The notes: generated by a model not told the origin, from the letters alone. A stretch of DNA of 64,000 nt from an uncultured Candidatus Saccharibacteria bacterium (GCA_964589975.1 CAZPVH010000004.1:10469-74468), one strand, 5' to 3'. Shown: positions 3,250-51,560, numbered from the stretch's first letter. Program-made: numbers and translations.

Positions 3250-4344
3250 CTAGTACATTTTTTCTAGGATTCCGATTCCATTGATGCCGCTGTTGCCCGT
3301 GCGGATCTCGACGTGAAGGTGTGGTCCAGTGGAGCGTCCGGTTGAGCCAACGCCACCAATGACGTCGCCCTGCTTCACAGTCTGGCCTTGTTTGACAGAA
3401 ATGCTAGAGAGGTGAGCGTAGAGAGTCTGAGTGCCATTGTCGTGTCCGATGATGACGAGTCCGCCGTATCCGCCGTTGTAAGCAGTAGTAGGCTTCACCA
3501 CCATGACGCGACCACTCGCCATTGCCCAGACGGCTGTGCCCGTCTTCGCGCCGATGTCTATAGCTTTATATCGGTCATGAACGCCCTGAGTTTTTACGCC
3601 CTTGACTGGTTTGATGTAGTAGCCGTTTGGAGCTTCCTTTGACGGCGCGCCTTTTGTTGTCGGTTTCTTCGTTTCTGTCGGGGCCTCCATTTCTTCGCCG
3701 TTCGGGATGATGATCTCAGTTCCGACGGCCAAAGCTTCGCCTTCTTCTATACCATTGAAAAGAGAGATTTCGCGGGCGTCAGCTTTGTACTTCTTCGCGA
3801 TGCTTGCAAATGTGTCGCCCTTGGCAACCTTGTGCTTGATTCCGGAGATCGGGAGGATGATAAGCTCCTGGCCAGGTTTTACTGTGCCTTTAACGTCTAT
3901 ATCGTTCGCCCAGCGAATGGTGTTAGGCGAAATTCCGAACATTTCGGCGATCTGGCCCAAAGTGTCGCCCTCGCGGACCGTGTATATAGAGATGTCGTCC
4001 GGGGAAGCGGAAACGATCTTTTCAGCCTCCTTTGTATCAGCGACTGGAGTCGTGTTTGGAACCAGAGCCTCGTCGTCAGTCATTAGAGGGTCCGGGCCGC
4101 CAACGGCGCCTTTCGGATCAGGGCGAGCTTTGGAGTTCAAGAGGGTAAGGGTCTGGGAGTTATAGAGGTTTGTCTCCGGGGAATACAGGTTCTCCTGGTC
4201 AGATCGGGCGACGCTCTGGCTGGAGAGATATGGGAGAACGAAAAAAGCCGCAATAGCTGCCAAAGAAAAACAGGCTTTTTTCGTGAAAAGCCGATTTAAA
4301 AGAGGTTTTTTGATTCCTGCCCCTTTAGCATTGATGGAAGGCAC
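3250..4344 (-). CDS. LysM-domain peptidase M23 (cell-wall endopeptidase)
   Basis: Signal/TM N-terminus; two LysM motifs (YTVREGDTLGQIAEMFGISPNTI, HKVAKGDTFASIAKKYKAD); C-terminal M23 signature GHDNGTQTLYAHL...GSTGRSTGPHLHVE. Confidence 0.85.
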   Translation of the reverse strand: MPSINAKGAGIKKPLLNRLFTKKACFSLAAIAAFFVLPYLSSQSVARSDQENLYSPETNLYNSQTLTLLNSKARPDPKGAVGGPDPLMTDDEALVPNTTPVADTKEAEKIVSASPDDISIYTVREGDTLGQIAEMFGISPNTIRWANDIDVKGTVKPGQELIILPISGIKHKVAKGDTFASIAKKYKADAREISLFNGIEEGEALAVGTEIIIPNGEEMEAPTETKKPTTKGAPSKEAPNGYYIKPVKGVKTQGVHDRYKAIDIGAKTGTAVWAMASGRVMVVKPTTAYNGGYGGLVIIGHDNGTQTLYAHLSSISVKQGQTVKQGDVIGGVGSTGRSTGPHLHVEIRTGNSGINGIGILEKMY

Positions 4345-4596
4345 GGAATCTTGTGAGTTTTTTCTTATAAGCCTATGTTTAACCTTTGTCTTACCTTAGC
4401 ATCCTGTATTTCTGTCGCTCCGGGCTATAAAACAAAAATTTGAGCTATTTCTGACTCCTTGAGGACATCAGAGGTAACCCATGAGAACAATCCTATCGGA
4501 TAGCCCCGGGGGAGTCAACGCAAATGTGGATAACCTCAAAACCTTGACGACAGGTAAAGAAGTATTGTCCACTTGGCCTATTTCTAAAGGCTTTTA

Positions 4597-4611
4597 TGAT
4601 ATAATTTCCCC
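4597..4611 (+). promoter_or_regulatory. extended -10 promoter (TGaTATAAT) 6 nt upstream of the ATG (leaderless)
   Basis: TGATATAAT-TTCCCC-ATG; an identical module sits upstream of the gene at 22315. Confidence 0.45.
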
Positions 4612-7600
4612 ATGAATTTGGAATCTAGAAAAACCAAAGATTTGGGTGAGTTGGCCGATATTCTAAAAACGGCCGAAGCAGAGGATCGGCAGAAGGAGGG
4701 AGTAAGGGCGATGGAGGAGGTCCAAGCTCGGGCCAGAGAAGAAGCCGAAAAGGATAAAGCTGCAGAAAATGTACAGATCGATGTTTCAGGAGTTGAGCCG
4801 GAAGTTACCCAAGAATTCGAAAAGTCTCAAGAACAGCACGGAGGGTACAGATGGGAGAACGGTGACGGGAAGACTTTTCAGCCTCTTTTAAAACAAATAG
4901 ACCGTATCGCCTTGGAAGAACTCACTAAGGCCCAGATAAAGAAATATGCTGAAGAGATCGCCAAGGGGAATTATCCTTCTAAGGCAGGGTCCATAAAATT
5001 TTTTAATGAACACGAACAAGAGATAGACCGAGAGGTGCAGATCATAAAGGCAAAGGATAAGGAAGCAAATCTAAAGGAGACTATTTCAAATAATTTTCCA
5101 AATAGTGAGAAGCCTTCTGGGGCAACCGAGAAGAAGTCGAGTGGTGTTGGCCGCATGAGGTTCGACGGCACTGATCCTTATGGACTTCGGATAAATAAGC
5201 AGATCAGGTATTCCAAATCACCTGAAAATTCAGCCAAATCTGCAGAAACTACAGAATCAGCATTTGCAAGATGGGATGGGAAGCAAGAAAGGATTCATCT
5301 TGAGCCCGGTTCGCAAGTTCGGGCTGGTTCGATTGAGGCGGAGCGCGAACCTGTTGGCCGGCCGGAATCTTTTAAGTTGGACACAAAACCAGAAGGCCTA
5401 CCCAAAGAAGCTCCACGATTTGGAGAGGTGGAATCTCATGCCAGGGCTGGAGGAAAGACCATAATTAGTGAGAAAGCCCCTGCCGCGCCAACTGCTGCTC
5501 CGGAAAAGCCTAACGGGAAGGAACGAGTGGAGAAACCGGTTATTGAAAGGACAGAGGCACCTAAGCCTAATCCTGCGTCAGAAAGACTTCAAACGCCAGC
5601 TGCTGCATTTGAGGGGCGAACGGAAACGAAGTCTGAATCAAATAAGGAGCTTGACGGTCTTGTTCAATTCAATCTCGGAAAATTTGGCATTATTAACGGC
5701 AATGATACCGAAGAAGCTAAGGGCCTCAAGATGGCAGAACTTCGCCGTGAAATACCAGAGTTCTTTGCTCTCTCGTCAGCACAACAGCTCTATGCCCTTG
5801 AGAAGCTTAGTCAGAAAAAGTCACACAATCTAGATGTGGAGACCAAGCGAGCTATCAAAGACGCTGACGCCACTAATAAGAAGGGCGGAATATTCGGACG
5901 TATTGGACGAGGTCTCACCAGAACTGGACGCACTGCGACGCTTCGCAAAAAAACATTGGAAGAGATGAAAAAGGGCGGTCTTGCAAGCTATAAAGAAGAT
6001 CTTCAGGGAATTGCTGGATTCACGCTTGCTCGCGGCAAACAGATCGAGGTTGGAGAGAAGGGTATGGTTATAAAATTCGTTAATCGCGGTGAAGAGGTAG
6101 AAGGAAAGCATGGAAAAATCATAGACGCGTATAACCGCGCTGCCACAGCTTTGGCCGAAACGCCGTACGTTCACACAACAGGCGATCTTACGCCTCTTGA
6201 AATAGTGGCCAGAAATAAATTCAAAAAGGCGGAAAAGGCTTTTGAGGCGGCACGAGCAGAACTTATGGCGTTCGAAGGAAAGGGTCTTCCGCCAGAAGAG
6301 ATGAAAAAGAAAGTTCTTGAATTCTCAAACCTCGATGATGATATTCGTCTGAACCAGGCATACTCATATGATTCAAAAGATCTCTACGGCGATACAAGCA
6401 TTTGGAACAAGATGGGCCAGATCGCGAATGATTACAAGATAACCGAAAAGGGCGGTTACGCTCTATCCGGTTTCGCGGCACGAACAATGGGCAAATACGC
6501 TCTTGGACTCGGCGGCGGCGTAGTCGCGTCTTCATTTATGGGAGGACTCCGCGGCTGGATAAGCAAGCGTCAGGAATTCAAAGAACTTGCAGAGCGAAAA
6601 CGCTCGGGCGATGACGTTAAAGGCAAAGAAGCTGTCGGGGTTAAAGAGGTTATTGACGGCGCTAGCTATGCGGCAAAGATAGACAAGCTTATTGCCGAGA
6701 TAGAAAACGCAAAAAGTCCGAAGCGAGACGCGCTCATCCAGAGTTTGCAGAACCGAGTTATGATTGCGCGCGAGCGTGATGAAATGGGACTTGTAAACTT
6801 TGGCAAAGCTAACAAAGAATTGGCGGCGAAATATGACTTCTTCCGAGCGCTGAAGGCTGCCAATAGAATTCTTCTTGAAACTGATCCGGAGGTCATGAAG
6901 ACGGCTGATGCTGTGGCGGAAAGAATGCAGTCGCTCTATTTCAAAGATGAAATAAAAGATGTAGAAAAGAAAAAAGCGATCAAGGCATCAATCAAGCGTG
7001 GCGCTATAGCTGGGGCAGGATTCTTTGTCGGAGGCTTTATTGCAAACGACCTGGCTTTCCATAATGGCGAATGGACGAAAGGCGCTATCAAAGATGTATC
7101 TGACCTGAGCGAGAAGGCTCTTGGAGAGCTAAAAGAATTCGCCAAGGAAGCAAACGCAGCAGCGAATGTGCAGTTTGCGAAACTGGGAAGACTTGGCCTT
7201 GACGCTATAGACGGAAACAGCGCCATGAATCCTGAAGCTACAGGCATCAATAAGCCTAGTTTCCATAAAGTTGAAGTCATGCCGGAAATTCCACGGCTTG
7301 AGCAGACGTTTTCTATGGTGGGCGGACGAGGAGCGATTGGCGCTATCGATGAACTTCAGGAGAAACTTCTGGCTCGCTATGGCGAGAACATGCCGGAGAA
7401 TTTGAAAGCCTTTATGGCGGCCAAGCCGGAGAAGCTCGCGATTGATTGGGGCTTTTATCGCCCAGGCGAAGAGGCTGAGAGCGCCGCTGTTATGAAAGGC
7501 GCGAAGTTTGGTATTACAAACGAAGGCCAGATTACGTTTGAAGATCATGAGGGCAATGTTGTCAGACTTGGTGGCGGCGAGAAATTTGCCGGCCGAATGT

Positions 7601-8775
7601 ATGACGGTAGTCCAAAGGCGGCAGCTGCCATCGTTGACGAGACCCCGCGAGTTGATTTTGCTGACATTGAGGCGCAGCACCAGGCGACTGGCTGGGAACA
7701 TCAGAACGCTGGTACCGGCGAAATATTCTCAAGAGAAGTTCCTATGCAGCCTGGAATGGGCGGGGCGAATGCGGAGCTCATGGCTTCGACAAGCGGTGGT
7801 CCTGTCGGAGCTGAAACTATTGGCACCATCTCTGGCGTGCCGCCTGAAGGAATGTCAGTCGCGACCCCTGAAATACGGGGAACAGTGGTGGCCAAGTACG
7901 ACGACTTCGGTCGCGTGACTCGCATGGCGTGGGCGCCGCAGAGCAGGATTGATGAAGTCGTAAAATTCAAAGCGACTCCTGATAAATTCCTAGTTGATGA
8001 CCTGGAGCACTCAGGTCTTAAGTACCCGACTCGCTCTTTTGGCACATCAGAGCTTCGAAATACCGAGATGACAAAATACTGCATCTCATATCTTGAGTGG
8101 CGAAACATGCTGAAGTCAGGCGGTTTCCAGCCGGGATCACCGGAGTATAACTACATCACCGGTCAGATGAGACTAGTTGGCTCAGCTATCGAAGCCAAGT
8201 CGGGAGCAATCTTCCGTCCGATCCAAGAAGACGGGATTCTCCGAGGCCTCAAGGCTCCAAGAATAGAAAATATCCCGACAGCTCCAGCGAGTCCGATGCC
8301 ACCAGAGCCGGAAATGCCCAGCGCCAAGGCGCCGGCCCCGGTAGAAGATTTCACCGGTCGCCCAGGCTCATCTGAAGTATTGAAATTCCAGGATGGGAAT
8401 GGGGTAAAAGCCAAGCTTGAATTCTTGAAAGACGAGAACGGAAAGATATATGGCATCGGCAAGGAAAGCGGTATGAAAACGCCTTTTGATAATAATTCCG
8501 AGAAGTTCTTGGAAGATAATTGGAAAGACTTGGCAAAGGCCGAGGCTGAGGCCAAGGGCAAGGATCTTAGAATATTTGAGAAGCAGATAGAGCTCCGAGC
8601 AAAGAACTACGTCCAATACGAAACCCTGATCAAAAGCAGCTTCTTCAAAGATCTTCCGCCAGATGGTCAGGAAGTTATCAAGCAAGAATTGGCGAAAATA
8701 GTGAGTCGCTATGACAAATTCCTCAAAAATGAGCAATATGCCGATATCGCGGCATCTATAAAGGGCAGATCATAA
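4612..8775 (+). CDS. very large (1387 aa) acidic coiled-coil hypothetical protein
   Basis: Single uninterrupted ORF, highly charged K/E-rich, one internal hydrophobic Gly-rich segment, no recognisable catalytic motif. Confidence 0.6.
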   Translation: MNLESRKTKDLGELADILKTAEAEDRQKEGVRAMEEVQARAREEAEKDKAAENVQIDVSGVEPEVTQEFEKSQEQHGGYRWENGDGKTFQPLLKQIDRIALEELTKAQIKKYAEEIAKGNYPSKAGSIKFFNEHEQEIDREVQIIKAKDKEANLKETISNNFPNSEKPSGATEKKSSGVGRMRFDGTDPYGLRINKQIRYSKSPENSAKSAETTESAFARWDGKQERIHLEPGSQVRAGSIEAEREPVGRPESFKLDTKPEGLPKEAPRFGEVESHARAGGKTIISEKAPAAPTAAPEKPNGKERVEKPVIERTEAPKPNPASERLQTPAAAFEGRTETKSESNKELDGLVQFNLGKFGIINGNDTEEAKGLKMAELRREIPEFFALSSAQQLYALEKLSQKKSHNLDVETKRAIKDADATNKKGGIFGRIGRGLTRTGRTATLRKKTLEEMKKGGLASYKEDLQGIAGFTLARGKQIEVGEKGMVIKFVNRGEEVEGKHGKIIDAYNRAATALAETPYVHTTGDLTPLEIVARNKFKKAEKAFEAARAELMAFEGKGLPPEEMKKKVLEFSNLDDDIRLNQAYSYDSKDLYGDTSIWNKMGQIANDYKITEKGGYALSGFAARTMGKYALGLGGGVVASSFMGGLRGWISKRQEFKELAERKRSGDDVKGKEAVGVKEVIDGASYAAKIDKLIAEIENAKSPKRDALIQSLQNRVMIARERDEMGLVNFGKANKELAAKYDFFRALKAANRILLETDPEVMKTADAVAERMQSLYFKDEIKDVEKKKAIKASIKRGAIAGAGFFVGGFIANDLAFHNGEWTKGAIKDVSDLSEKALGELKEFAKEANAAANVQFAKLGRLGLDAIDGNSAMNPEATGINKPSFHKVEVMPEIPRLEQTFSMVGGRGAIGAIDELQEKLLARYGENMPENLKAFMAAKPEKLAIDWGFYRPGEEAESAAVMKGAKFGITNEGQITFEDHEGNVVRLGGGEKFAGRMYDGSPKAAAAIVDETPRVDFADIEAQHQATGWEHQNAGTGEIFSREVPMQPGMGGANAELMASTSGGPVGAETIGTISGVPPEGMSVATPEIRGTVVAKYDDFGRVTRMAWAPQSRIDEVVKFKATPDKFLVDDLEHSGLKYPTRSFGTSELRNTEMTKYCISYLEWRNMLKSGGFQPGSPEYNYITGQMRLVGSAIEAKSGAIFRPIQEDGILRGLKAPRIENIPTAPASPMPPEPEMPSAKAPAPVEDFTGRPGSSEVLKFQDGNGVKAKLEFLKDENGKIYGIGKESGMKTPFDNNSEKFLEDNWKDLAKAEAEAKGKDLRIFEKQIELRAKNYVQYETLIKSSFFKDLPPDGQEVIKQELAKIVSRYDKFLKNEQYADIAASIKGRS

Positions 8776-8795
8776 AGTCTCGTGATATAGTGTTG

Positions 8796-8926
8796 TGATG
8801 AATCCCGTTAGTGACCGCGGTCGCTAGCGAGAATTCGTTATCTGAATATGGAATTCTTACTTTATACAAATATTAGTACTATGGCAGTTTGCGGGACGAC
8901 CGCGACCTGTCACTAACGGGATGAAT
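8796..8926. repeat. MITE-like palindromic element (family 2) with about 24-bp terminal inverted repeats and GATGAAT/ATGAAT flanking direct repeat
   Basis: Left arm GAATCCCGTTAGTGACCGCGGTCG, right arm CGACCGCGACCTGTCACTAACGGGAT. The right arm ends at the ATG of the downstream helicase gene. Confidence 0.45.
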
Positions 8927-10858
8927 TACCTCGAAGGCCTAAACGATCGGCAGAAAGAGGCCGTCCTTCATAAGGACGGCCCTTTGCTCATTGTCGCTGG
9001 CGCGGGCGCGGGGAAGACAAAGACTATCACACACAGGATTGCGTACCTCATCGAGCAAGGTGTGCCGGGAGAACAAATTCTTGCCGTAACCTTCACAAAC
9101 AAAGCCGCCAAAGAGATGAATGAGCGCGTGCAAAGCTTGGTAGCACTGCCGGATTTCGCCGGGAGACCGACTATTTGTACATTTCACTCGCTGGGTGTCA
9201 GGATCCTTAAAGAAAACGCTAGAGCACTCGGACTTTCGCGATTTTTCCCAATCATGGATGACGATGACAGTATGTCTCTCATTAAAGAATCCATGAAAGA
9301 GCTCGGCATTGATCCGAAGACTGTTTCGCCTCGTTCGGTTCGCTCATTCATCTCGCGCTCGAAGAATGATTTTTTATCGGAGCAGGATTTCTCCGATCAG
9401 AATGTGAAGTCGTATCAGCAAGCCATCAATCTTTCTGTTTGGAAAAAATATGAAGAGAAGAAAAAAGCCGCAGGAGGACTTGATTTTGACGACCTCTTGC
9501 TCGAGACAACAAAGCTTCTTCAGAAGAATCCAGAAATACTCGCGGTATATCATGCTCGCTGGAGATACATTCATGTGGATGAGTATCAAGACACGAATAA
9601 AGTGCAGTATGTGCTGACGCAGCTCCTTGCCAAGGCGAGCCGGAACATCTGTGTGGTTGGTGATGGTGACCAAAATATTTACAGTTGGCGTGGTGCCGAC
9701 ATTGTAAACATCTTGAACTTCGAGAAGGACTATCCCGACGCTAAAGTGGTACTACTCGAGGAGAATTATCGCTCGACGAAGACGATACTTCACGCGGCGA
9801 ACTCAGTTATAAAGAAGAATAAAGAACGAAAAGAAAAGAATTTATTTACATCAAACGATGATGGTGACATGGTCTCACTTTTTGAAGCCTATAACGATAG
9901 AATCGAAGCTGAATTTGTGGCCGAGAAATGCGTCGAGCTCATGGATAAAGGAATTAAGCCGGAAGACATTGCCGTTCTTTATCGCGCGAACTTCCAGTCG
10001 CGTCTTCTGGAAGAAAAGATGCTCACATATTCCGTGCCTTATCAGGTACTTGGGGTTAAATTCTTTGATCGAAGAGAGGTGAAAGATGTTTTGTCGTACC
10101 TGCGGCTCGCGTTTAATCCGAATTCCTCTGTCGATATCCGCCGGGCAATATCTTTCCCAAAGCGCGGGCTCGGGAAAGTCGCTGTCGAGAAAATCCTTGC
10201 AGGAGAAAAGGATAAATTACCGATGAAGACACTTATAAAAGTGAATCAGTTTTTTGAATCTATCGAAAAGATGCGCGAATATGCCGAATCGCATCTTCCA
10301 TCAGAGACGTTGAAGTATGTCATCAAAGCTTCCGGCATAGAAGCGGAACTAAAAGCCGGGAAGTCTGACGACGATATCGACCGGCTTGAAAATGTCATGG
10401 AAATGGTTTCGTTCGCAGCTAAATATGACAGTTTTCCACCGATCGAGGGTATTGAAAAACTTATCGAAGAAGCGAGTCTTGCATCTGATCAGGATTCGCT
10501 CTCGTCCGAAGGCGAGGCGAAGAAAGAAAAGAATAAGCGTGGTGTGAAGCTTATGACCGTGCATGCCTCAAAGGGGCTCGAGTTTAAATACGTGTTCATC
10601 GTCGGACTTGAAGGCGAGCTTTTTCCGCATGTCCGCGACGACATGTCGGATATCGAAGAAGAGCGCCGCTTGTTTTACGTTGCCATTACGCGCGCTCGCG
10701 AGAAACTGTTCCTGACTTACGCCACGCTTCGCCAGCTTTTTGGTGAGACCAAACTCCAAATGCCGTCGCAGTTCCTAAATGATGTCCCGCAGGAAATACT
10801 TTTCCGCGAGGAAAGGGAGTCGAGCGGGTTTGGGAATAATGTGATATATCTAGATTGA
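8921..10858 (+). CDS. uvrD: UvrD/PcrA-family ATP-dependent DNA helicase
   Basis: GAGAGKTKT Walker A; helicase motifs TFHSLG, VDEYQDTN, VGDGDQNIYSWRGA, YRS; C-terminal motif VHASKGLEF...LFYVAITRA. Confidence 0.85.
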   Translation: MNYLEGLNDRQKEAVLHKDGPLLIVAGAGAGKTKTITHRIAYLIEQGVPGEQILAVTFTNKAAKEMNERVQSLVALPDFAGRPTICTFHSLGVRILKENARALGLSRFFPIMDDDDSMSLIKESMKELGIDPKTVSPRSVRSFISRSKNDFLSEQDFSDQNVKSYQQAINLSVWKKYEEKKKAAGGLDFDDLLLETTKLLQKNPEILAVYHARWRYIHVDEYQDTNKVQYVLTQLLAKASRNICVVGDGDQNIYSWRGADIVNILNFEKDYPDAKVVLLEENYRSTKTILHAANSVIKKNKERKEKNLFTSNDDGDMVSLFEAYNDRIEAEFVAEKCVELMDKGIKPEDIAVLYRANFQSRLLEEKMLTYSVPYQVLGVKFFDRREVKDVLSYLRLAFNPNSSVDIRRAISFPKRGLGKVAVEKILAGEKDKLPMKTLIKVNQFFESIEKMREYAESHLPSETLKYVIKASGIEAELKAGKSDDDIDRLENVMEMVSFAAKYDSFPPIEGIEKLIEEASLASDQDSLSSEGEAKKEKNKRGVKLMTVHASKGLEFKYVFIVGLEGELFPHVRDDMSDIEEERRLFYVAITRAREKLFLTYATLRQLFGETKLQMPSQFLNDVPQEILFREERESSGFGNNVIYLD

Positions 10859-10859
10859 C

Positions 10860-10944
10860 GCTCCGCAAAACATGAGATTTCCTCACCCTGCGGGAGCGCT
10901 TCACTAGGTCCTCGGGATTCGAAAATCTCATGTTTTGACTCCGC
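10860..10944. repeat. MITE-like palindromic intergenic element (family 1, short copy)
   Basis: 15-bp perfect TIR CAAAACATGAGATTT/AAATCTCATGTTTTG flanked by GCTCCGC / ACTCCGC; the internal CTGCGGG...CTCGGGATTCG motif is shared with the elements at about 22.1 kb and 43.8 kb. Confidence 0.5.
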
Positions 10945-13079: not shown

Positions 13080-15356
13080 ATGTTTTTTATGACTGGACGC
13101 AAAGCTCTGAAAATAATCCTCTCGCTTTTCCTTATAGCAACAATCATGGCGCCAAACGCCCTGCCTTTTTCCGCGAAGTATGCTGCGGCCCAAAGCGCAA
13201 ATGGGGAGCTAAGCGGTTCAGCTGGGACGGGCTTCAATGCTGGGGGAATAATCGCTTCGGCCATCTCGTGTTCTGGTCTCATGGATAAACTGGCTAGTGC
13301 GCTCTCAAGCCTTTTTTCGGTCACCGAAGTTCCGGTCGGCGACGCAGGACTCCGAACAAAGGAGAACTGCATGGACGCTATCGTCCATCAACTCGTAGTT
13401 ATGATCCTCGACAAGATTACGCTTGCGACTGTTGACTGGATTAATAGCGGTTTCGAGGGTCAGCCGCTATATCTTTCTGATCCTGAAGATTTTTTCACAA
13501 ATATTGCCCAGGATGAAATCAATCGTGTTACTGGTTGGTATGGTTGCACGACTGGAAATGTGAATTGCGGCGAAGACTATCCTTTCGGTCAGATTGTCAT
13601 GAGTAATATCATATCGACAATTCAAAGTCAGCTGGCAGCCAATGTCAGATTTTCACTAAACCAGGTTTTGGCTCACGGAACATACGAAGAATACAAGTTT
13701 GATTTCAATGTCGGTGGCTGGGCCGGGTATACAGCCATGCTTCAGCCTAACAACAACATTTTCGGCAACAATTTACTTATTAACAAAGAACTCGGTCGCA
13801 GGATTGGCGGTACATCAATGACTATCAGTCAGAATTTCAAAGCCCAGGTTACTGAGTCCGGAGGTTTTTTGAATCAGCGACGTTGTGTCCTTACCGCTAC
13901 AAACGATCCTGGCGACTACTATATTCCTAAAGACGACGAGATGCATGTTCCTCCTGGAGGACCAATTCCGCAGGCGGTTTACAATGCCGCCAATATGAAC
14001 GGCCCGTACGACGTGCCGACCGAGACGCAACAAGCAACCCTTACCGAGTACACTCTTCGGAGCGAATGCAAAGAGTGGCGCACGACAACTCCCGGAAACA
14101 TCGTCTCGAGCAAAATTACCAGCGCTCTTAACATTTCTGATAACAAATTGATCCAAGCCGATGAAATTTCCGAGAGCCTCGGCCTCATCTTTGACGCGCT
14201 CATCAACCAGCTTGTGAATACCGGCCTTGAATCCCTGAGCTCCTTCGCTTCGAGCGACGGAGGCGGCGGAGGACTCAACAGCGTCTTGGTGGCCCAGGTC
14301 AACGGCGAGCAGCCAGGACAAGTGACGAACGGACAGGCTCCACCTCCGGCTATTGATGCCATTACCGGTACAGGTTACTCGCAAGAGCCGCTACTTTTGG
14401 TACAGCAGCAGTATATCCAGCTTGCTCAACAGGCTGTTCCACAGCTTGATACCCTTATGAAGAAAATACGGGCGCTTGATTATTGTGTTCCTGGACCTCA
14501 TCCTTCTTGGCTTGACGAAGCAGAGGAAAATTTCCAGAACGTGCTTCTGTCCGTACAGCCGTTTGTTTCAAGTAATCCTGATTCCGGCGATGCTGAAGAA
14601 GAAAATCAGTCCTATTATGCCGCTGCCATTAATACCATTACCGGAATCAATATCTCTGAAAGTCCCGCGATGCATAACCATACGCAGTTCACGGCGTTTA
14701 TGAATAACGTCTTTAACAAGTACGCGGCCAGGATGCAGGATACTGCTAACATGGGCTACAGCAGGTTCTTGGCGCCGCCGGCGACTCGAGTTTTCTTGCA
14801 GAACCTGATGGATGAAATGGAAACCTACCAGACGACCTATGATAATTTGAATGAATATTTGACCAACATTACTTCATATATGCCGCAACTGATACAAATT
14901 GACGCTGCGCTCAACGATTTGGCTGATGGAAATGGAGGCGTCTTGGACGAAGATGATCCGCAGGTCCAGGCGCAAATCTCTTTGTTTAATAGTATTTCCG
15001 ATCACTTTGCCACAGAGGCTCAGCTCGACTACCTGGAGGTTAATTATGTTCTATATCAGAACCGTGAGACAACGGTTAATAGTCATATAAACAGTTGCTT
15101 GGCCGAAACGGTGAACGTTCCGTATCAGCCGGATCAACGAGTCATGTATCCGACTCCGATCCTGCCAACATACCAGCAGAACGATGGCGCCGAAATACCT
15201 ACTAACATGCCGAATTTCGATGACGCTTTCCTTCCGGGTGTTGATTTTACAGACAACACTAACGGTGGAGATATCGATGTCTCGTTCGAAAATGTTCAAA
15301 TTATTGGTTCTGAGCCTCTTACCATCTTTGAAACGGTTCTGCAATCAGTCTATTAA
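13080..15356 (+). CDS. large secreted hypothetical protein (758 aa)
   Basis: Signal peptide; Gly/Asn/Gln-rich; lies in the T4SS-like cluster. Alternative start at 13089. Confidence 0.6.
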   Translation: MFFMTGRKALKIILSLFLIATIMAPNALPFSAKYAAAQSANGELSGSAGTGFNAGGIIASAISCSGLMDKLASALSSLFSVTEVPVGDAGLRTKENCMDAIVHQLVVMILDKITLATVDWINSGFEGQPLYLSDPEDFFTNIAQDEINRVTGWYGCTTGNVNCGEDYPFGQIVMSNIISTIQSQLAANVRFSLNQVLAHGTYEEYKFDFNVGGWAGYTAMLQPNNNIFGNNLLINKELGRRIGGTSMTISQNFKAQVTESGGFLNQRRCVLTATNDPGDYYIPKDDEMHVPPGGPIPQAVYNAANMNGPYDVPTETQQATLTEYTLRSECKEWRTTTPGNIVSSKITSALNISDNKLIQADEISESLGLIFDALINQLVNTGLESLSSFASSDGGGGGLNSVLVAQVNGEQPGQVTNGQAPPPAIDAITGTGYSQEPLLLVQQQYIQLAQQAVPQLDTLMKKIRALDYCVPGPHPSWLDEAEENFQNVLLSVQPFVSSNPDSGDAEEENQSYYAAAINTITGINISESPAMHNHTQFTAFMNNVFNKYAARMQDTANMGYSRFLAPPATRVFLQNLMDEMETYQTTYDNLNEYLTNITSYMPQLIQIDAALNDLADGNGGVLDEDDPQVQAQISLFNSISDHFATEAQLDYLEVNYVLYQNRETTVNSHINSCLAETVNVPYQPDQRVMYPTPILPTYQQNDGAEIPTNMPNFDDAFLPGVDFTDNTNGGDIDVSFENVQIIGSEPLTIFETVLQSVY

Positions 15357-15448
15357 GGATAAAAGGTCGGATTTGCACACATTAGAGCCCCGGAAACGGG
15401 GCTCTGGTGCTATAATCTCCATATGCTTGCGCCTTTTGCGCACGATTA

Positions 15449-17788
15449 ATGAAAAAGAAATTCGGCATTGCCATAATGTTTTTTTCGATTGTTCTTGGAA
15501 CTGTTTTTGTTCCGGCTTTTTCAGCATATGCTCAGGCCAATGTCGACACATCTGACTACAACGACTATGAAGCAAGGCTTCAGGATTGCGGGGTTCTGGG
15601 AGATTCCAACCTGACAGCCTGTCTTGTCGAGGCTTTGTATTACTTGGTGCTGACGCCTTCGGCTTGGTTCGCCCGCGTGACTGGTGAACTGTTCGATTAT
15701 TTCGTCCAGTATTCCCTCGACACGAATTCATACCGTGGGAATGACAATTTTATTGAACGCGGTTGGTCTATAGTTCGTGATATTGGAAACGTCCTATTTA
15801 TCTTTGCTCTTCTTTATATTGCCATCACGCACATACTCCAAGCTGGTACGTCAGGGACAAAGAAATTTCTAATCAATCTCATCATTGCGGCGCTGCTGAT
15901 TAACTTCTCGCTCTTTTTCTCTCGCGTCATCATAGATGGTGGGAATGTTCTGGCTCGCGCGTTCTATAACAACATAGAGATCCCGAATGACGACAACCTG
16001 CAGTATCACACTATCTCCCAGGGAATCGTGATGCATGTTAATCCGCAGCGCCTGCTTGGCTCCGAACTTTTTACGCCAAAATATTCGAGTGATCCTGATG
16101 TGCCAGAAGGAAAAGTCGATAACGGGTATGCGGCACTAATTCTCGGTATGGCCACAGCAGTCAATATTGTCATGGGGATCACGTTTCTCTCTGTTGCGCT
16201 TCTCTTCGTTGGTCGCGTTGTGGGACTATGGTTCTTGATGATCTTCTCGCCGTTTGCGCTGGCTTCTATTGCTGTTCCAAATTCCGGCAAGATCTTTGGT
16301 CAGTTTAGCTGGAGCGGCTGGATCGATCAGATATTGAAGCTTTCATTCATGGCGCCGGTCTTCCTGTTTTTCCTCTTTCTCCTCATCATGTTCCTCCAAA
16401 TCATTTTCCAGACGAACGTATCTGACGCTGACAAGACGACAGTGCAGTGGATTCTCGATGTTGTCATACCATTTGTCATGGTCATATTTATTCTCAATAA
16501 GGCAAAGAAAGTCGCGGCAGACATGGCTGGGGAAGCGGGCAGCGCGGTCAAGAGCGCGGTTGGTTCTGCCGCAGGGTTTGCTGTCAGCACTGTGGGTCTC
16601 GGTATTGGGGCTACAGCATACATTGGCCGTAATACTGTCGGTAGGCTCGCATCTTCGTCGATAAAACGTCAACAGTTCCAAGAACGAGTTGCTTTGAATA
16701 ATATGAAAGCCAAGGAGTCTGAGCGAAAAGCTGAACAAGCTACGAACGAAAAAGAACGGTTGGCTCATATTCGTGACGCAGAAAAAGCTCGAGCAGCTGC
16801 GGTAAGAAATGCGATGGTTGTCAATCGAATGGATAAATTTAGAAAGGGTAGCTGGGATATCAGGAAGACCGACTGGATGAAGAAACAAGGAGGCCTGGCC
16901 GGAGTTGCTTATGATGTTGGCGCGAAAGCGGGTGGCTGGTCAAAGTCTCTGGCAGGGGAGTTATTTGATTCAAAGACTAAACTTGATATCGGTAAAGCCA
17001 AAGACACGAGTCGTTCGAAATACGAGGAGGATCAGAAAAAGAAGGATCTTGAAAAGGCAAAACTTTATGATGTGCAGGATCGAGGTGATCTTGAAATGAT
17101 CAAATACGAAGCGCGCAAAGGCTTGAATGGCAAGACGGAAGCTATAGAACGCATTGATGAATACATAGAAGAAACTACTAATTCCAAGAAGATTACAGAA
17201 ACGGAAAGAGAGAGACGGCTTAAAGATGCAGAGAATTGGAAGAAGGCGCTGGTCGCTGCTGTCACTGATAAGGATGTTATAGATGTTATATCGGGTAAAA
17301 AAGCTCAAGAAATTGATAATCCTGCATATCAAGATCTGAAAGAATCGCTGGAAGAGAAGCAGACTCGCAGAAATGAACTGCAGGCAATAAAAAAACGCGA
17401 AGGAAGACTCTTGCCTGAAGAGGAAAGGGAGTTGAATGGACTAGATGGAGAAATAGCGGCAACTAATTTGGAATTGAAGAAAACGAAACAAAAGATAGCT
17501 GACCCTGACAACCCTGGTTATTCTGGCGTTGAAGATCACGCGAAAACAATAGCGGGACAAGCAAGAGACGGCTACGCCACCATTGTTGAGAATAAAAATA
17601 TTACCAACGATATATTTAATCTTGGGGTAGGAAAGAGGGAAGCTGCGGCCAGGGCTGATGAAATAAGACGAGGCGTAAAGCCAGATGACTGGAAAGACAA
17701 GTTCAAGAAACTAGCAAAAGAGGTTGGAATGGATGAAAAACCAAAAGATGAACCAAAGTCTGATGATGGAGGAGGTGATAAAAAATAA
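15449..17788 (+). CDS. VirB6/TrbL-like polytopic membrane protein with long charged coiled-coil C-terminus
   Basis: Signal peptide, at least 5 TM helices in the middle third, a Gly/Ala-rich segment, then about 350 aa of K/E-rich coiled coil. Confidence 0.5.
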   Translation: MKKKFGIAIMFFSIVLGTVFVPAFSAYAQANVDTSDYNDYEARLQDCGVLGDSNLTACLVEALYYLVLTPSAWFARVTGELFDYFVQYSLDTNSYRGNDNFIERGWSIVRDIGNVLFIFALLYIAITHILQAGTSGTKKFLINLIIAALLINFSLFFSRVIIDGGNVLARAFYNNIEIPNDDNLQYHTISQGIVMHVNPQRLLGSELFTPKYSSDPDVPEGKVDNGYAALILGMATAVNIVMGITFLSVALLFVGRVVGLWFLMIFSPFALASIAVPNSGKIFGQFSWSGWIDQILKLSFMAPVFLFFLFLLIMFLQIIFQTNVSDADKTTVQWILDVVIPFVMVIFILNKAKKVAADMAGEAGSAVKSAVGSAAGFAVSTVGLGIGATAYIGRNTVGRLASSSIKRQQFQERVALNNMKAKESERKAEQATNEKERLAHIRDAEKARAAAVRNAMVVNRMDKFRKGSWDIRKTDWMKKQGGLAGVAYDVGAKAGGWSKSLAGELFDSKTKLDIGKAKDTSRSKYEEDQKKKDLEKAKLYDVQDRGDLEMIKYEARKGLNGKTEAIERIDEYIEETTNSKKITETERERRLKDAENWKKALVAAVTDKDVIDVISGKKAQEIDNPAYQDLKESLEEKQTRRNELQAIKKREGRLLPEEERELNGLDGEIAATNLELKKTKQKIADPDNPGYSGVEDHAKTIAGQARDGYATIVENKNITNDIFNLGVGKREAAARADEIRRGVKPDDWKDKFKKLAKEVGMDEKPKDEPKSDDGGGDKK

Positions 17789-18466: not shown

Positions 18467-18916
18467 GTAGAAAGTAGTAAGTCGTAAGTCGCACGAACGA
18501 TGAACGAGCAAATAAAAAGAGGGCACAAGGATCTTGTAGTATGGCAAAAGGCCATGGACTTGGTCGAGGAAATTTATAAGTTGATTAAAGAGCTTCCAAA
18601 GGATGAGAAGTTTAATCTGGTTTCACAGATAAGCAGATCAGCTGTATCTATACCCTCAAATATTGCCGAAGGGTATAGAAGGGGGTCTGATAAATCATTC
18701 AAACAATTTTTATTAATTGCCTTCGGTTCAAGCGCCGAACTTGAAACTCAAATTGAGCTGGTCAAGAGACTGGTTTTAGCCCCCAATTTTGATTTTAAAG
18801 CAGTTGATAATCTCTTGTCTGACACCATGAGATTACTGAACGCTTTCATAAAGAAACTAGGTTGATCAAAGAGTTATCCGTGCTACTTACGACTTCCGAC
18901 TTCCAACTTACTGCGT
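18461..18916. repeat. IVS-like hairpin element: heptamer-repeat inverted repeats enclosing the four-helix-bundle gene
   Basis: Left arm GTAAGTAG-AAAGTAG-TAAGTCG-TAAGTCG-CACG (18461–18499). Right arm CGTGCTACTTACGACTTCCGACTTCCAACTTAC (18879–18916). The proximal stem pairs about 17 of 20 nt. Confidence 0.5.
18500..18865 (+). CDS. four-helix-bundle protein (23S rRNA intervening-sequence protein family)
   Basis: 121 aa; WQKAMDL...ELPKDEKFNLVSQISRSAVSIPSNIAEGYRRGS...ELETQIELVKRL matches the TIGR02436-type family. Confidence 0.8.
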   Translation: MNEQIKRGHKDLVVWQKAMDLVEEIYKLIKELPKDEKFNLVSQISRSAVSIPSNIAEGYRRGSDKSFKQFLLIAFGSSAELETQIELVKRLVLAPNFDFKAVDNLLSDTMRLLNAFIKKLG

Positions 18917-18928
18917 TATAATTAACTC

Positions 18929-19345
18929 ATGCGTTTCCAGGTTCCCCAATTCATCGACATCGAAGACAAGATCTTCGGACCGTTCACGTTCAAGCAGTTC
19001 GTCTATTTGGCGGGCGGCGCCGGCGCGTCTTACGCCATTTTCAAGCTTTTGCCTATCTACATCTCCGTTTTGCTTATCTTGCCGATCCTTGGAGTCGCCA
19101 TGGCACTTACTTTTTACAAAGTGAACGGCAAGCCGTTCATTGATATCCTCCAAGCCTGGTTCATATACACCTTCAAATCGAAGCTTTTCATCTGGAAGCA
19201 GCGCAAGGTCGAGAAAAAGAAAGAAGTTGTAGAAAAGAAGCCAGAAGCTCATCCAATGTCGAACATTCCAAAGCTTACGGAGTCGCGTCTCTCAGATATT
19301 TCTTGGAGCCTAGATGTCCTAGACATGCAGCAGAAGGATAAATAA
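18929..19345 (+). CDS. PrgI/VirB3-like small membrane protein of Gram-positive-type T4SS
   Basis: 138 aa; FQVPQFIDIEDKIFGPFTFKQFVYLAGGAG plus two TM helices, typical of the PrgI family; TATAAT-N6-ATG promoter. Confidence 0.6.
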   Translation: MRFQVPQFIDIEDKIFGPFTFKQFVYLAGGAGASYAIFKLLPIYISVLLILPILGVAMALTFYKVNGKPFIDILQAWFIYTFKSKLFIWKQRKVEKKKEVVEKKPEAHPMSNIPKLTESRLSDISWSLDVLDMQQKDK

Positions 19346-19351
19346 TTTTTT

Positions 19352-19996
19352 ATGGCACTTAATGCAAGAGCATCACAGCAGTTCGTTCCGATAAAAGAGA
19401 TCCAAGATGGGATCGTCGTTTTGAAAGACGGCGGTCTTCGGGCAATTCTCATGGCTTCTTCCATTAACCTTTCTCTAAAATCGGAGGATGAGCAAACTGC
19501 GACGATCATGCAGTTCCAAAATTTCTTGAATACGCTCGATTTTTCCATACAGATCTCGGTGCAGTCGAGGAAATTCAATATCACAAACTATGTAGCCCTG
19601 CTTGAGGGTCGGGTTAGGGAGCAGACCGAGCCGCTTCTAAAGATTCAAACTGAAGAATATATTAAATTCATTAAGGATTTTACCGAAACGACCAACATTA
19701 TGACCAAGCACTTTTTCTTGGTCATACCCCTAATGCCACTCAAAGGTGCTGACGGTGGTCTAATGGACAAAGTGCTGCCGGCGAATAAAACAATGACGCG
19801 CGCAGAGAAGGAAGAGGCTTTTAGCGAGGAGCGCTCACAACTTGAACAGCGTATTGCCGTTGTTGAACAGGGACTTTCTCGCATTGGCGTCCGAACTCTT
19901 CAGCTCAAAACGGAGGATGAGGTCGAATTGTTTTATCGCGTCTTCAATCCGGGCGACGCCGAAAGTCCGATTGATATAACTAATCAAGACAAATAA
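19352..19996 (+). CDS. VirB4/TrbE-family conjugal-transfer ATPase, N-terminal domain fragment
   Basis: IPIKEIQDGIVVLKDGGLRAILMASSINLSLKSEDEQ is the typical N-terminus of Gram-positive VirB4 (PrgJ/TcpF/Orf16-like). It ends at a TAA in frame with the next ORF. Confidence 0.6.
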   Translation: MALNARASQQFVPIKEIQDGIVVLKDGGLRAILMASSINLSLKSEDEQTATIMQFQNFLNTLDFSIQISVQSRKFNITNYVALLEGRVREQTEPLLKIQTEEYIKFIKDFTETTNIMTKHFFLVIPLMPLKGADGGLMDKVLPANKTMTRAEKEEAFSEERSQLEQRIAVVEQGLSRIGVRTLQLKTEDEVELFYRVFNPGDAESPIDITNQDK

Positions 19997-19999
19997 TTT

Positions 20000-22072: not shown

Positions 22073-22075
22073 GAA

Positions 22076-22245
22076 GCTCCGCAGAATGCTTATTTAGGAA
22101 TCCTCCGAGATGCGCGCCCTCCATCCCTCGTAGCCCTCGGAATGGAGAAAACTGGCGCGCCCCCTCACGAAAAAGCTCCTAAAAGGGAGCTTTTTCTGCG
22201 GGTTCGTTCTCGGATTCCTAAATAAGCACTCTGCTCCGCGGAGAG
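22076..22245. repeat. MITE-like palindromic intergenic element (family 1, long copy)
   Basis: 21-bp TIR AGAATGCTTATTTAGGAATCC / GGATTCCTAAATAAGCACTCT with nested GC-rich hairpins. Internal CTGCGGGTTCGTTCTCGGATTCC is conserved with the copy at about 43.8 kb. Flanked by direct GCTCCGC on both sides. Confidence 0.5.
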
Positions 22246-22314
22246 CGGAGAGGTCTCAATAGTTTTCCTACTAGCAGCTTATAACTTCGGACTCGGTTTT
22301 GATATAATATTCCC

Positions 22315-22899
22315 ATGAATCAAGACAATACGGACCCGAAGACTATCAACTCTGATGACCAGAATACGATGGCTGATGCGGGCGTCGACATAACCGGCGG
22401 ATCGGGGGAGAATATTGCCGAAGGCGAGAAGGAACAGGCGTCGGAAGTCATGGATATTGATAGTTCGGCAGATGATGCTACGGCTGAAAAGGCCGGCATA
22501 AAGTTCGTCCAAACCGACAAAACTGATTTATCCGCGATGGCTGAGGCCAAGCAGAAAGCAGCATCTGACTCAAGGGCTCTAGAAGCTGAGTTTAAGGCGG
22601 AGTTTCCGGATTTCAAGGGTCCGCTTAAACCAGAATCAGAAAATGCTGTTATGGGTAAAGTAACTTCGCTCGGAACACTCCTTGCTAAAATTCAGGAAAA
22701 GCTTGGCTTAAAGAAGACATCGGTCCGGGAAGAGCTTGGAAGTCTCAAAAAGATGAAGGATGCTATCGGAAAAGACATTGAAGAGATCAAGGAGCTTGAG
22801 AGTTCAGAGCAAAAGATTAAAGAAGAGATTGGCAAAATTGAGTCCATTAGGAAAGAGGTAGAAGATATAGAAGAGAAGCTCGGAGAAGATTTGAAGTAG
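22315..22899 (+). CDS. acidic coiled-coil hypothetical protein
   Basis: 194 aa, very acidic; preceded by the same TGATATAAT-N6-ATGAAT module as the gene at 4612. Confidence 0.55.
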   Translation: MNQDNTDPKTINSDDQNTMADAGVDITGGSGENIAEGEKEQASEVMDIDSSADDATAEKAGIKFVQTDKTDLSAMAEAKQKAASDSRALEAEFKAEFPDFKGPLKPESENAVMGKVTSLGTLLAKIQEKLGLKKTSVREELGSLKKMKDAIGKDIEEIKELESSEQKIKEEIGKIESIRKEVEDIEEKLGEDLK

Positions 22900-22911
22900 C
22901 AGCTATTTAAA

Positions 22912-23892: not shown

Positions 23893-23893
23893 T

Positions 23894-43769: not shown

Positions 43770-43930
43770 CCCCAGAATGTGTTATTTGGGATTCTGCGAG
43801 ACGCCCGCCAGCCTTCCTCCGAGCACTCGGAAGGCTCATGAAGCACTAGTAGGCGGGCGCCCTCACGGCCTGTGCGCAGGCCTGCGGGTTCGTTCTCGAA
43901 TCCCAAAAAACACATTCTGCTTCGCTGGAA
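43770..43930. repeat. MITE-like palindromic intergenic element (family 1, long copy)
   Basis: 20-bp TIR GAATGTGTTATTTGGGATTC / GAATCCCAAAAAACACATTC; internal CTGCGGGTTCGTTCTCGAATCCC; about 80% identity over both ends to the copy at about 22.1 kb. Confidence 0.5.
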
Positions 43931-50764: not shown

Positions 50765-50775
50765 AGATTAGATAT

Positions 50776-50812
50776 GGATCCCGTTAGAGGCCGCGATCGC
50801 GGACGATAACGG
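50776..50812. repeat. short palindromic element related to family 2 (collapsed TIR-only copy)
   Basis: ATCCCGTTAGAGGCCGCGATCGCGGACGATAACGG shares the ATCCCGTTAG..CCGCG..TCGC arm with the element at 8796–8926. Confidence 0.35.
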
Positions 50813-50822
50813 AAAAAAATTT

Positions 50823-51560
50823 ATGAAAACACAAAACTCACAAAAGAATACTGAAGTTTCAGAAACCTCAAGATCGCGATCTGCCTCTAACGGGATGGAA
50901 GCAACCATCTACAACAAAGAAGGAAAAGCAGCAGGGAAAATAGAATTGCCAGCGGATATCTTTGGTCTCTCTTGGAATGCCGACTTGGTTCACCAGGTCA
51001 TGACTTCGATGAACCAGAACGCGCGAGCGAACACAGCTTCGACTAAAGATCGATCTGAGGTCTCGGGTACTGGCGCGAAGCCTTGGAAGCAGAAGGGAAC
51101 AGGCCGCGCGCGACATGGTTCACGCCGTTCTCCAATCTGGGTCAAAGGAGGCGTGGCTCATGGTCCGAATCCTGACCGAAACTACACAAAGAAGATCAAC
51201 AAGAAGATGAGCGCCAAAGCTCTCTTTACCGCAATATCAAAGAAGATGAAAGACGGAGAGGTTCTTTTCGTCGATACGCTCTCGATGGGAGAGATGAAAA
51301 CGAAGGAAGCTGCAAAGGCACTCATGGCTCTTGGTGGCATTACCGGCTTCGAGCGCCTCCAAGGCTCAAAGAAAGTTGTTGCGCACATCGCAACCGCGAA
51401 GCGCGAAGATAATACCGCAAAGAGCTTCAACAACATTCCGTTCGTCGAAGTTGGCGAGATCCGAAACATCAATCTTCTCGACGTCATCAATCATCGTTAC
51501 CTTATCATTGAAAGCCCAAAGGAGTCTGTCGAATTCCTGGCCTCTAAGCTAGCAAAATAA
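50823..51560 (+). CDS. rplD: 50S ribosomal protein L4
   Basis: PWKQKGTGRARHGS...GGVAHGP; N-terminal 24-aa extension. The start could be the internal ATG at about 50895. Confidence 0.92.
   Translation: MKTQNSQKNTEVSETSRSRSASNGMEATIYNKEGKAAGKIELPADIFGLSWNADLVHQVMTSMNQNARANTASTKDRSEVSGTGAKPWKQKGTGRARHGSRRSPIWVKGGVAHGPNPDRNYTKKINKKMSAKALFTAISKKMKDGEVLFVDTLSMGEMKTKEAAKALMALGGITGFERLQGSKKVVAHIATAKREDNTAKSFNNIPFVEVGEIRNINLLDVINHRYLIIESPKESVEFLASKLAK

Follow-up and report, generated by a model that had tools for sequence, protein, structure and literature searches.

The question raised by a 64,000-nt stretch of DNA from an uncultured Candidatus Saccharibacteria bacterium (GCA_964589975.1, CAZPVH010000004.1:10469-74468; hereafter the window, with positions counted from its first letter) is how a long palindrome can come to occupy the start codon of a helicase gene, uvrD/pcrA, and how that gene can still be translated. 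The palindrome, element A, ends within the first codon of this gene, and a second one, element B, stands in the same relation to rplD, the gene for ribosomal protein L4. The analysis described here indicates that both belong to a family of non-autonomous mobile hairpins of ~105-135 nt, which is widespread in Patescibacteria (the candidate phyla radiation, CPR), inserts at the motif ATG-R-A (R, purine) of start codons and would hand translation over to the start codon that it rebuilds. The probability of this reading, with the hand-over included, is put at about 0.72.

Element A consists of arms of 14 and 8 bp (stems P1 and P2) with a 4-nt bulge, and an AT-rich interior of 73 nt; it is flanked by GATGAAT at 8797-8803 and 8920-8926. 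The inverted arms, the AT-rich middle and the GATGAAT repeat, with a right arm that gives the helicase start at ATG 8921, had been pointed out at 8796-8926 by an earlier reading made without database searches (the sequence-only reading), and all of them were recovered. The protein encoded from this ATG begins with MNYLEGLN, which is also the N-terminus of 40 orthologues. By RNA folding, element A reaches -51.7 kcal/mol (z = -5.9) and none of 200 shuffled sequences folds equally well; the folding z-score of element B is -5.1. Two matches to the two-arm pattern ATCCCGTTAG-N85-115-CTAACGGGAT are present in the window, and none was obtained from 100 shuffles. The fold z-scores and the absence of the pattern from shuffled sequences imply that the structure of elements A and B is beyond chance. 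At the second site, the ATG of rplD (50895) comes from the right arm of element B (GCCTCTAACGGGAT), with ATGGA on either side. The segment 50776-50812 had been taken by the sequence-only reading for a collapsed relative that retained the arms only; it actually belongs to a complete copy of 119 nt (50778-50896), of which it comprises the left arm and a local palindrome. The 4-nt bulge is common to both elements, and the inner four pairs of P1 together with P2 differ between them by compensatory changes.

That both elements are insertions became apparent from relatives in which the sites are empty. The uvrD site is empty in four relatives (UvrD 93, 93, 87 and 73% identical), where 22 nt lie between the upstream stop codon and the ATG. 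The same spacer in the window measures 145 nt, and the 123 extra nucleotides equal the distance from the ATG left of the element (ATG1) to the rebuilt ATG at its right end (ATG2). The flank TGnTATAGTGT...ATGAAT(T) is conserved in the window and the four orthologous upstream regions, and the junction TATAGTGTTCTG-ATGAATTATC of one relative (L121) corresponds in the window to TATAGTGTTGTG-ATGA, the element and GAATTACC. Because the empty uvrD sites differ by these 123 nt while the flanks are conserved, an insertion with target duplication is concluded. The rplD site is empty in relatives with L4 proteins >90%, 85% and 79% identical, in which the rplC-rplD spacer is 9-10 nt, and the insertion is common to two other close relatives (L125 and L129). 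At both genes, empty alleles contain one ATGRA and occupied alleles contain two. These comparisons, which the sequence-only reading had proposed for the pcrA/uvrD orthologues, support its view of an insertion with target-site duplication at, or creating, a start codon; the start context is the same in the relatives and the repeat is far from unique.

The public gene call for L4 (P0121, 50823-51560) comprises 245 aa from an ATG inside element B, as against 221 aa in orthologues, and the 24-aa extension is evidently a false start annotation. Such mis-annotation of start sites is likely to be systematic wherever elements of this family sit. The rplC-rplD spacer before ATG1 (window 50765-50773; 9-10 nt) differs between occupied and empty alleles (L126, L127 and L128), reading TAG AGATTAGAT in the former and TAA TCTAATTTTT or TCTAATTCTT in the latter. 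The occupied spacer resembles the reverse complement of the empty one, and TCTAAT of the empty spacer resembles TCTAAC of the element arm.

The pattern ATCCCGTTAG-N85-115-CTAACGGGAT was then used for a family scan with one genome per species, and the family counts given below refer to the matches listed from it. At least 119 loci in public genomes carry the same termini; a search for further copies had been suggested by the sequence-only reading. Nearly all are from Patescibacteria, including Saccharibacteria, many Parcubacteria lineages, Levybacteria and Kerfeldbacteria. This distribution, together with the names of homologues, also places the window itself in Patescibacteria. The copies measure 105-134 nt, and their reading frames are short and not conserved from one to another. 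The termini, ATCCCGTTAGA.../...TCTAACGGGAT, are inverted over 11-14 bp, to which P2 adds in one subfamily; that the outer 10 bp look invariant is due in part to the exact search pattern, which fixed them. There are several interior subtypes, two loci (L065 and L071) each have a near-identical pair in one genome, and several genomes contain 3-4 sampled copies, the window containing two. In three cases two elements stand in tandem at one start codon with only a 2-nt GA between them (L062 5471-5712, L105 6502-6722 and L017 7672-7897), and the pair in L105 is made up of two different subtypes. Tandem insertion at one ATG implies that the regenerated site is again a target. The host genes are functionally unrelated, with 121 Pfam families across 115 genes, and include those for topoisomerase I, SSB, PheT, L9, L17 and adenylate kinase. 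A search of Rfam 15 gave nothing relevant, either for the whole window at gathering scores or for elements A and B at E up to 10, and the lack of a match rules out the known ribozymes, leaders and CPR motifs of that database as the identity of the element. No published description of the family was found in the full-text literature, subscription-only literature being outside reach.

Typical copies, mostly at ATGA...GAA start sites, are also found in metagenome-assembled genomes with labels other than Patescibacteria, namely Omnitrophota (L018 and L084), Sedimentisphaerales (L063 and L080), Gammaproteobacteria (L046, L052 and L072) and WOR-3 (L061); the copy in L063 lies on a 210-kb contig. These copies reflect either horizontal spread beyond the CPR or mis-binning and mislabelling. 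Two further matches to the pattern, labelled Prevotellaceae (L006) and Coriobacteriaceae (L009), are without family features.

The target is defined by the flanks. An ATG is present at one end in 130 of the 134 copies with exact termini, and 118 of those 130 are followed by an open reading frame (ORF) of at least 60 aa or by one running off the end of the locus. When 128 copies are oriented by that ATG, the left flank reads A (110), T (111), G (107), R (118; 89 A and 29 G), the element itself runs from ATCCCG to CGGGAT, and the right flank reads G (128), R (117; 92 A and 25 G), A (116). The combination ATGA/GAA accounts for 71 copies and ATGG/GGA for 21. The base after the ATG is the same on both sides, and yet it differs among related copies of the same genome and subfamily (ATGG in L007, ATGT in L089), which argues that the repeat derives from the target. 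ATG1 is lost or mutated, for example to GTG, CTG, ATA or ACG, in 18 of the 128 copies (14%), implying that the left ATG is dispensable. The right junction always restores an intact ATG and an untouched ORF because the element ends with ...CTAACGGGAT. Taken together, these data show that the element inserts at ATG-R-A of a start codon, duplicates the motif and restores the ATG, the left-behind ATG slowly decaying.

If a site is called start-like when the frame is closed upstream of it and a long ORF follows, 80.5% of the element sites qualify, as compared with 10.5% of the remaining ATGRA sites of this DNA (4496). Insertion at starts is general in the family and no accident of uvrD, a point that the sequence-only reading had not made. 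No gene-splitting copies were found among the family copies examined. The window has 366 ATGRA sites, of which 18 are at gene starts, 19 between genes and 329 within ORFs; given 18 start and 19 intergenic sites, a model in which insertion is lethal inside genes and neutral between them predicts a ratio of ~1:1, far from the observed excess at starts. This excess is taken to reflect purifying selection elsewhere together with protection from deletion at starts. Selection must account for part of it, insertions elsewhere in genomes that are 92% coding being harmful. Copies at start codons may also escape the bias of streamlined genomes towards deletion, as an imprecise loss would take the promoter or the ATG with it. 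A mechanistic bias towards initiation regions is conceivable as well. A bolder version, in which the excess reflects target choice by the mechanism rather than selection, with DNA opened by the initiating RNA polymerase at leaderless genes or a folded strand read by a new enzyme, is judged unlikely; a bias towards opened leaderless promoters could not be general, because element B lies inside the S10 operon.

The hairpin itself appears to be under selection in one strand. In the 14-bp terminal stem P1, pair 11 hardly varies, and covariation through A-T, G-C, C-G and T-A is seen at pairs 12-14. Pairs 11-14 are all formed in 116 of 128 copies, as against 33.8 with shuffled partners, and comprise 20 distinct 4-mers. 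One large subfamily has a second stem of 8 bp beyond a 4-nt bulge on the 3' strand. For 34 copies of the window subtype, RNAalifold returned 21 pairs (14 in P1 and 7 in P2) and the 3' bulge AYCT, and 8 of the 21 pairs show double compensatory changes. Among non-Watson-Crick pairs of the sense strand, G.U pairs (21) outnumber A.C pairs (3). When the 3'-side bulge is used as an orientation marker, 80 of the 85 copies that have it are forward relative to the gene (94%) and 5 are reversed; the rare reversed copies could be due to inversion of the segment that the inverted arms enclose. The G.U excess, the covariation and the polarity imply that pairing matters in the single-stranded sense strand, most simply the mRNA. 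The dominant structure is a single hairpin formed from both ends, and in some subtypes it is accompanied by local hairpins close to either end.

How, then, is the host gene expressed? TGnTATAGTGT precedes the ATG by 6-8 nt in each of the five uvrD upstream regions; a scan for the promoter consensus returned no -35/-10 pair. If TGATATAGT acts as an extended -10 promoter, the uvrD mRNA would be leaderless or nearly so. In the family as a whole, -10-like hexamers are most frequent 6-9 nt before ATG1 and Shine-Dalgarno (SD) motifs are rare, on account of which many host genes look leaderless, with no SD for ATG2; the sequences suggest that many genes of these genomes are leaderless. Since the -10-like boxes sit directly upstream of ATG1, the native initiation signals would serve ATG1 after the insertion. 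Extended -10-like boxes 6-8 nt before the start were noticed at window 8783-8797 and in the left flanks of L007, L008, L022, L028, L054, L056 and L089, and TANNNT peaks at -15, -13 and -12 in left flanks. ATG2 lacks an SD, and a very stable stem encloses its A and U. An SD inside the arm was considered and set aside: the arm offers only CGGG directly before the AUG, too near and too weak.

The frames that run through the element provide a clue. The frame of ATG1 (MNPVR... or MDPVR...) spans the entire element without a stop in 37 of 110 copies, compared with 10.8 expected from shuffled interiors, and the other two frames do so in just 11 and 12 copies. The enrichment is specific: the share of copies with an open ATG1 frame is 53% among those in which it ends at the UAA of CUAACGGGAUG, 28% among those in which it ends at the UGA of AUGA and 7% among those in which it would fuse with the gene. 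When frames from any ATG are counted, 70 of 128 copies have one ending at the arm UAA, against 26.9 expected, and neither frames ending at the overlapping UGA (23 against 21.3) nor in-frame fusions (19 against 27.2) are enriched; given the last figure, fusion at the N-terminus was rejected as a solution for the family in general. The median open length is 20 codons for the UAA frame and 11 for the gene's own frame. An internal ATG starts the UAA frame in 60 copies, at a median position of nt 47 in the A-rich loop, with a median length of ~20 codons.

Coupling by termination and reinitiation requires a stop codon within a few nucleotides of the next AUG, and the upstream frame melts the structure around the start (PMC6728339; PMC10666635). 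In reporter experiments with Escherichia coli and Haloferax, losses of 5-70% were observed at +2 nt and a gap of ~20 nt almost abolished coupling; in E. coli, a stop-start gap of 38 nt cuts reinitiation by 80-100% (PMC10666635). In the proposed account, the element would be tolerated at essential genes because it brings its own delivery of ribosomes to the rebuilt ATG. A short frame would start at the left-behind ATG or at an ATG in the loop, run through the 3' strand of the hairpin, melting the stem, and terminate 4 nt short of the gene's AUG, at the UAA that the arm contains (CUAACGGGAUG); the gene would then be translated by termination-reinitiation. In element A, 8848-8916 is the proposed coupling frame. 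In element B, the internal ATG at 50823 is in frame with rplD and, if translated, would give an N-terminally extended L4. The frame statistics suggest that termination-reinitiation keeps the host gene expressed.

Several observations weigh against this account of insertion and hand-over. A UAA-terminated frame is present in only 55% of copies, and 30 of 128 have no coupled frame at all; because about a quarter thus lack one, coupling is not the sole route of expression. In the window, the first upstream frame of element A ends 93 nt before the gene, and element B is without a UAA-terminated frame. The copies are related by ancestry, for which reason the family counts are not fully independent, and arm variants with compensatory changes exist (ACCCCGTTAG/CTAACGGGGT and ATCACGTTAG/CTAACGTGAT), which detracts from the invariance of the outer arms. 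As regards mobility, no transposase is encoded in the window. No autonomous copy emerged from a search limited to the window, 0.96 Mb of loci and viral contigs: relaxed arms 300-4000 nt apart in the loci gave noise only, and the viral contigs gave 0 matches to the two-arm pattern. Unpaired arms in the loci, considered as ends of a long element, proved to be degenerate short copies. Finally, the asymmetric bulge, the strand-specific G.U excess and the fixed polarity fit an enzyme acting on a folded single strand better than a transposase acting on double-stranded terminal inverted repeats (TIRs).

With respect to the mechanism of movement, a mobilising enzyme would act in trans and make a staggered cut. 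The duplication would then be either the 2 nt GR, which lie between perfect ATCCCG...CGGGAT ends, or the 5 nt ATGRA. A staggered cut is the most likely chemistry because the duplicated nucleotides vary with the target, and the polarity could be explained under it by selection for features of sense-strand expression. The options are ranked in the order of staggered-cut transposition in trans, an HUH-type mechanism and a recombinase-type mechanism.

The HUH option supposes a Y1-type single-strand element, like REPINs or the PATEs derived from IS200/IS605, excised and inserted 3' of ATGR as folded single-stranded DNA; its right end would itself terminate in ATGR, the duplication being only apparent. 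REPINs and PATEs are likewise hairpin repeats of ~100 nt with compensatory pairing, a folded strand that is recognised and a fixed polarity. The folded-strand anatomy of the present family, its conserved extrahelical bulge, its compensatory stem changes and its fixed polarity relative to an asymmetric target would all fit, and Y1_Tnp-like genes occur in 6 of the 119 listed loci and in L121. However, REPINs and PATEs make no target duplication, the conserved target tetranucleotide of PATEs standing only on the 5' flank, whereas here the repeated bases are target-derived: the base after the ATG matches both flanks and changes with the target, as an element-borne right end would not. Moreover, REPINs flank their own RAYT gene, while the six Y1-like genes in the loci and the one in L121 are flanked by other small, genome-specific palindromes of RAYT-like type and not by ATCCCGTTAG, and IS200/IS605 elements have two separate subterminal hairpins, where the dominant structure here is one hairpin of both ends, joined in some subtypes by local ones. 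This option is regarded as distinctly unlikely.

A circular or hairpin intermediate integrated by a serine or tyrosine recombinase is more doubtful still. The joined ends (...TCTAACGGGAT-GR-ATCCCGTTAGA...) would serve as a core site, with a crossover matched in AT-GR-AT. They have the textbook geometry of such a site, and the junction is exactly so in the tandem copies L062 and L105; an asymmetric core would explain both the fixed polarity and the requirement for ATGRA(T). On the other hand, the crossover bases are GA, GG, GC and GT among related copies, which enzymes needing an identical overlap would not easily allow. In addition, the target shows no arm-like conservation beyond ATGRA, and no recombinase gene is linked to the element.

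Could the structure instead be a cis-regulatory RNA of the host (a translational operator, a thermosensor or a riboswitch-like device) that hides the start codon, rather than a selfish insertion? The very stable hairpin around the A and U of the start codon, the apparent selection on sense-strand pairing, and an internal CGGGA-type motif that in some copies could pair with the 5' arm in place of the terminal arm are compatible with this. The occurrence of the element is not: it is present or absent in close relatives at the same gene, it has no association with a class of genes, as regulatory RNA families do, its host genes are unrelated (the 121 Pfam families noted above), it occurs in tandem double copies, and its interiors are highly variable and without a Rfam match. 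A regulatory RNA as the origin of the family is therefore very improbable, and individual copies may have been domesticated as regulators. A tiny intron between ATGRA repeats, or a ribosome hop from AUG1 to AUG2 of the kind known from T4 gene 60 and mitochondrial byp, is scarcely credible: a stable hairpin does lie between matching codons, like take-off and landing sites, and native initiation signals do precede ATG1, but 14% of copies no longer have an intact ATG1, ORFs interrupted by a copy were not found and long upstream in-frame stretches are nonsense (four of the five longest were examined and look non-coding), neither splicing nor hopping predicts the enrichment of the UAA frame, and there is no known ribozyme or intron signature.

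By its structure, the family can be classed with the miniature inverted-repeat transposable elements (MITEs). Correia elements of Neisseria, ERIC/IRU of enterobacteria, RUP of Streptococcus pneumoniae and Nezha of cyanobacteria are non-coding MITEs of ~100-150 bp with TIRs and a short target duplication, which have many copies and subfamilies, are mobilised in trans and form a long hairpin in mRNA. The start-codon family resembles them in size, in being non-coding, and in its inverted ends, target duplication, many copies and transcribed hairpin. These MITEs, however, use TA or AT-rich intergenic sites in either orientation without relation to start codons, in contrast to the use of ATG-R-A at starts, the rebuilt ATG, the 16:1 polarity and the frame that stops 4 nt before the gene. 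With respect to the defining features of a MITE, the family is short and non-coding, has TIRs, a duplication proved by empty sites and dispersed near-identical copies; an autonomous insertion sequence (IS) with the same ends was not found in the window, the 0.96 Mb of loci or the viral contigs. It is apparently a large, undescribed, start-codon-specific variant of MITE-like elements, without a known parent IS.

Rickettsia palindromic elements (RPEs) are comparable as selfish palindromes of similar size that are kept in essential genes and whose insertion is compatible with expression. They lie in frame inside ORFs and are translated, whereas the start-codon family sits at the first codon, outside the protein (the extension from element B being a possible exception), and no copy was found in an ORF. 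The T4 gene 60 gap and byp in Magnusiomyces mitochondria are likewise mobile hairpin inserts between identical codons, after which the downstream frame is still reached; such bypass elements are inside ORFs and need a take-off codon, unlike the start-codon family, in which the left ATG decays and stop and restart are indicated instead. The proposed UAA-CGGG-AUG junction resembles the termination-reinitiation that couples genes, except that the upstream frame is the short, non-conserved frame of a mobile element and not a gene. Integron attC sites are imperfect palindromes of 60-140 nt, used as a folded strand with extrahelical bases, and their GTTRRRY/RYYYAAC boxes are similar to the GTTAGA/TCTAAC boxes here. 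The order of the boxes, however, is reversed in the start-codon family (GTT 5' and AAC 3' on both strands), no integrase is present in the window, there is neither a cassette array nor attI, and the neighbours of the element are housekeeping genes.

It is somewhat more likely than not that the family is a hitherto undescribed class of bacterial mobile element with the start codon as its niche, which recognises ATG-R-A and restores the ATG from its own terminal AT, which carries a portable module of hairpin and upstream ORF (uORF)-UAA-N4-AUG that keeps even essential, leaderless genes expressed, and which has spread across Patescibacteria and possibly Omnitrophota and Planctomycetota. Such an element would illustrate a route for selfish DNA into extremely compact genomes: to occupy the first codon, rebuild it and bring a device for handing over translation. 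In a radiation that is uncultivated, the family may serve as a natural system in which to study termination-reinitiation as well as leaderless or SD-poor initiation, and the presence or absence of copies provides strain-level markers. A transposition enzyme with a very short, defined target is implied, which could be of practical interest. The features of both copies in the window are collected in Table 1.

Table 1. Positions of the two start-codon elements, their reading frames and their host genes in the window
Feature	Position	Strand	Remarks
Extended -10-like box TGATATAGT	8783..8791	+	6 nt upstream of ATG1; TGnTATAGTGT invariant in window and four orthologous regions
ATGAAT, left copy of duplicated target (ATG1 of copy A)	8798..8803	+	empty site in L121: CTG ATGAAT TATC
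uORF1 of copy A, from ATG1 (MNPVSDRGR)	8798..8827	+	stop TAG 8825-8827
Element A, palindrome end to palindrome end	8802..8922	+	121 nt
Element A, P1 5' strand, ATCCCGTTAGTGAC	8802..8815	+	pairs with 8909-8922
Element A, P2 5' strand, CGCGGTCG	8816..8823	+	pairs with 8897-8904
uORF2 of copy A (MEFLLYTNISTMAVCGTTATCH)	8848..8916	+	22 codons; starts in loop; stop UAA 8914-8916, 4 nt before uvrD ATG
Element A, P2 3' strand, CGACCGCG	8897..8904	+	pairs with 8816-8823
Element A, ACCT bulge of 3' strand	8905..8908	+	4 nt; conserved; family consensus AYCT
Element A, P1 3' strand, GTCACTAACGGGAT	8909..8922	+	holds UAA 8914-8916 and the A and T of ATG2
ATGAAT, right copy of duplicated target	8921..8926	+	true uvrD/pcrA start
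uvrD/pcrA helicase, host gene of element A	8921..10858	+	645 aa
ATGGA, left copy of duplicated target (ATG1 of copy B)	50774..50778	+	
uORF of copy B, from ATG1 (MDPVRGRDRGR)	50774..50809	+	stop TAA
Element B	50778..50896	+	119 nt; between rplC and rplD
Element B, P1	50778-50791 with 50883-50896	+	paired strands
Element B, P2	50792-50798 with 50872-50878	+	paired strands
Internal ATG of copy B, in frame with rplD	50823..50894	+	24-aa extension; annotated by gene callers
Element B, bulge ATCT	50879-50882	+	
rplD (L4), native start MEATIYNKEGK	50895..51560	+	221 aa, as in orthologues

Some other elements and genes were noticed nearby. In L121 (UvrD 93% identical), a Y1/RAYT-like gene of 204 aa with an HYH motif lies at 3947-4645 between uvrD and ksgA (rRNA adenine dimethylase) and is flanked by ACCCCGAGGTC...GACCTCGGGGGT hairpins. 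The same place in the window (10866-10937) lacks a Y1 gene and contains just an inverted repeat of an unrelated kind, with arms of 28 nt. Comparable Y1 genes are found in L008, L019, L037, L086 and L115, each with genome-specific flanking palindromes. A link between the start-codon element and the Y1/RAYT-like gene beside uvrD was considered and rejected, the homologues (6 of the 119 listed loci) having their own unrelated palindromes.

Large genes without a Pfam match occupy window 4612-8775 and 13080-17788. A second, unrelated family of ~150-nt elements, probably the one that the sequence-only reading had named Family 1, is represented at window 22081-22234 and 43773-43919. It has inverted arms of 22-23 nt (GCAGAATGCTTATTTAGGAATCC / GGATTCCTAAATAAGCACTCTGC), a GC-rich structured interior and a common CTGCGGGTTCGTTCTCG near the 3' arm; the two copies show compensatory differences, are both intergenic and off start codons, and have no Rfam match. 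At window 18500-18865 a 121-aa protein of the 23S rRNA intervening-sequence or bAvd-like four-helix-bundle type is encoded, and its gene is adjoined at 18929-25393 by a type IV secretion-like cluster with PrgI, a VirB4/TraG-like ATPase, a type IV secretion system pilin and a peptidoglycan hydrolase.

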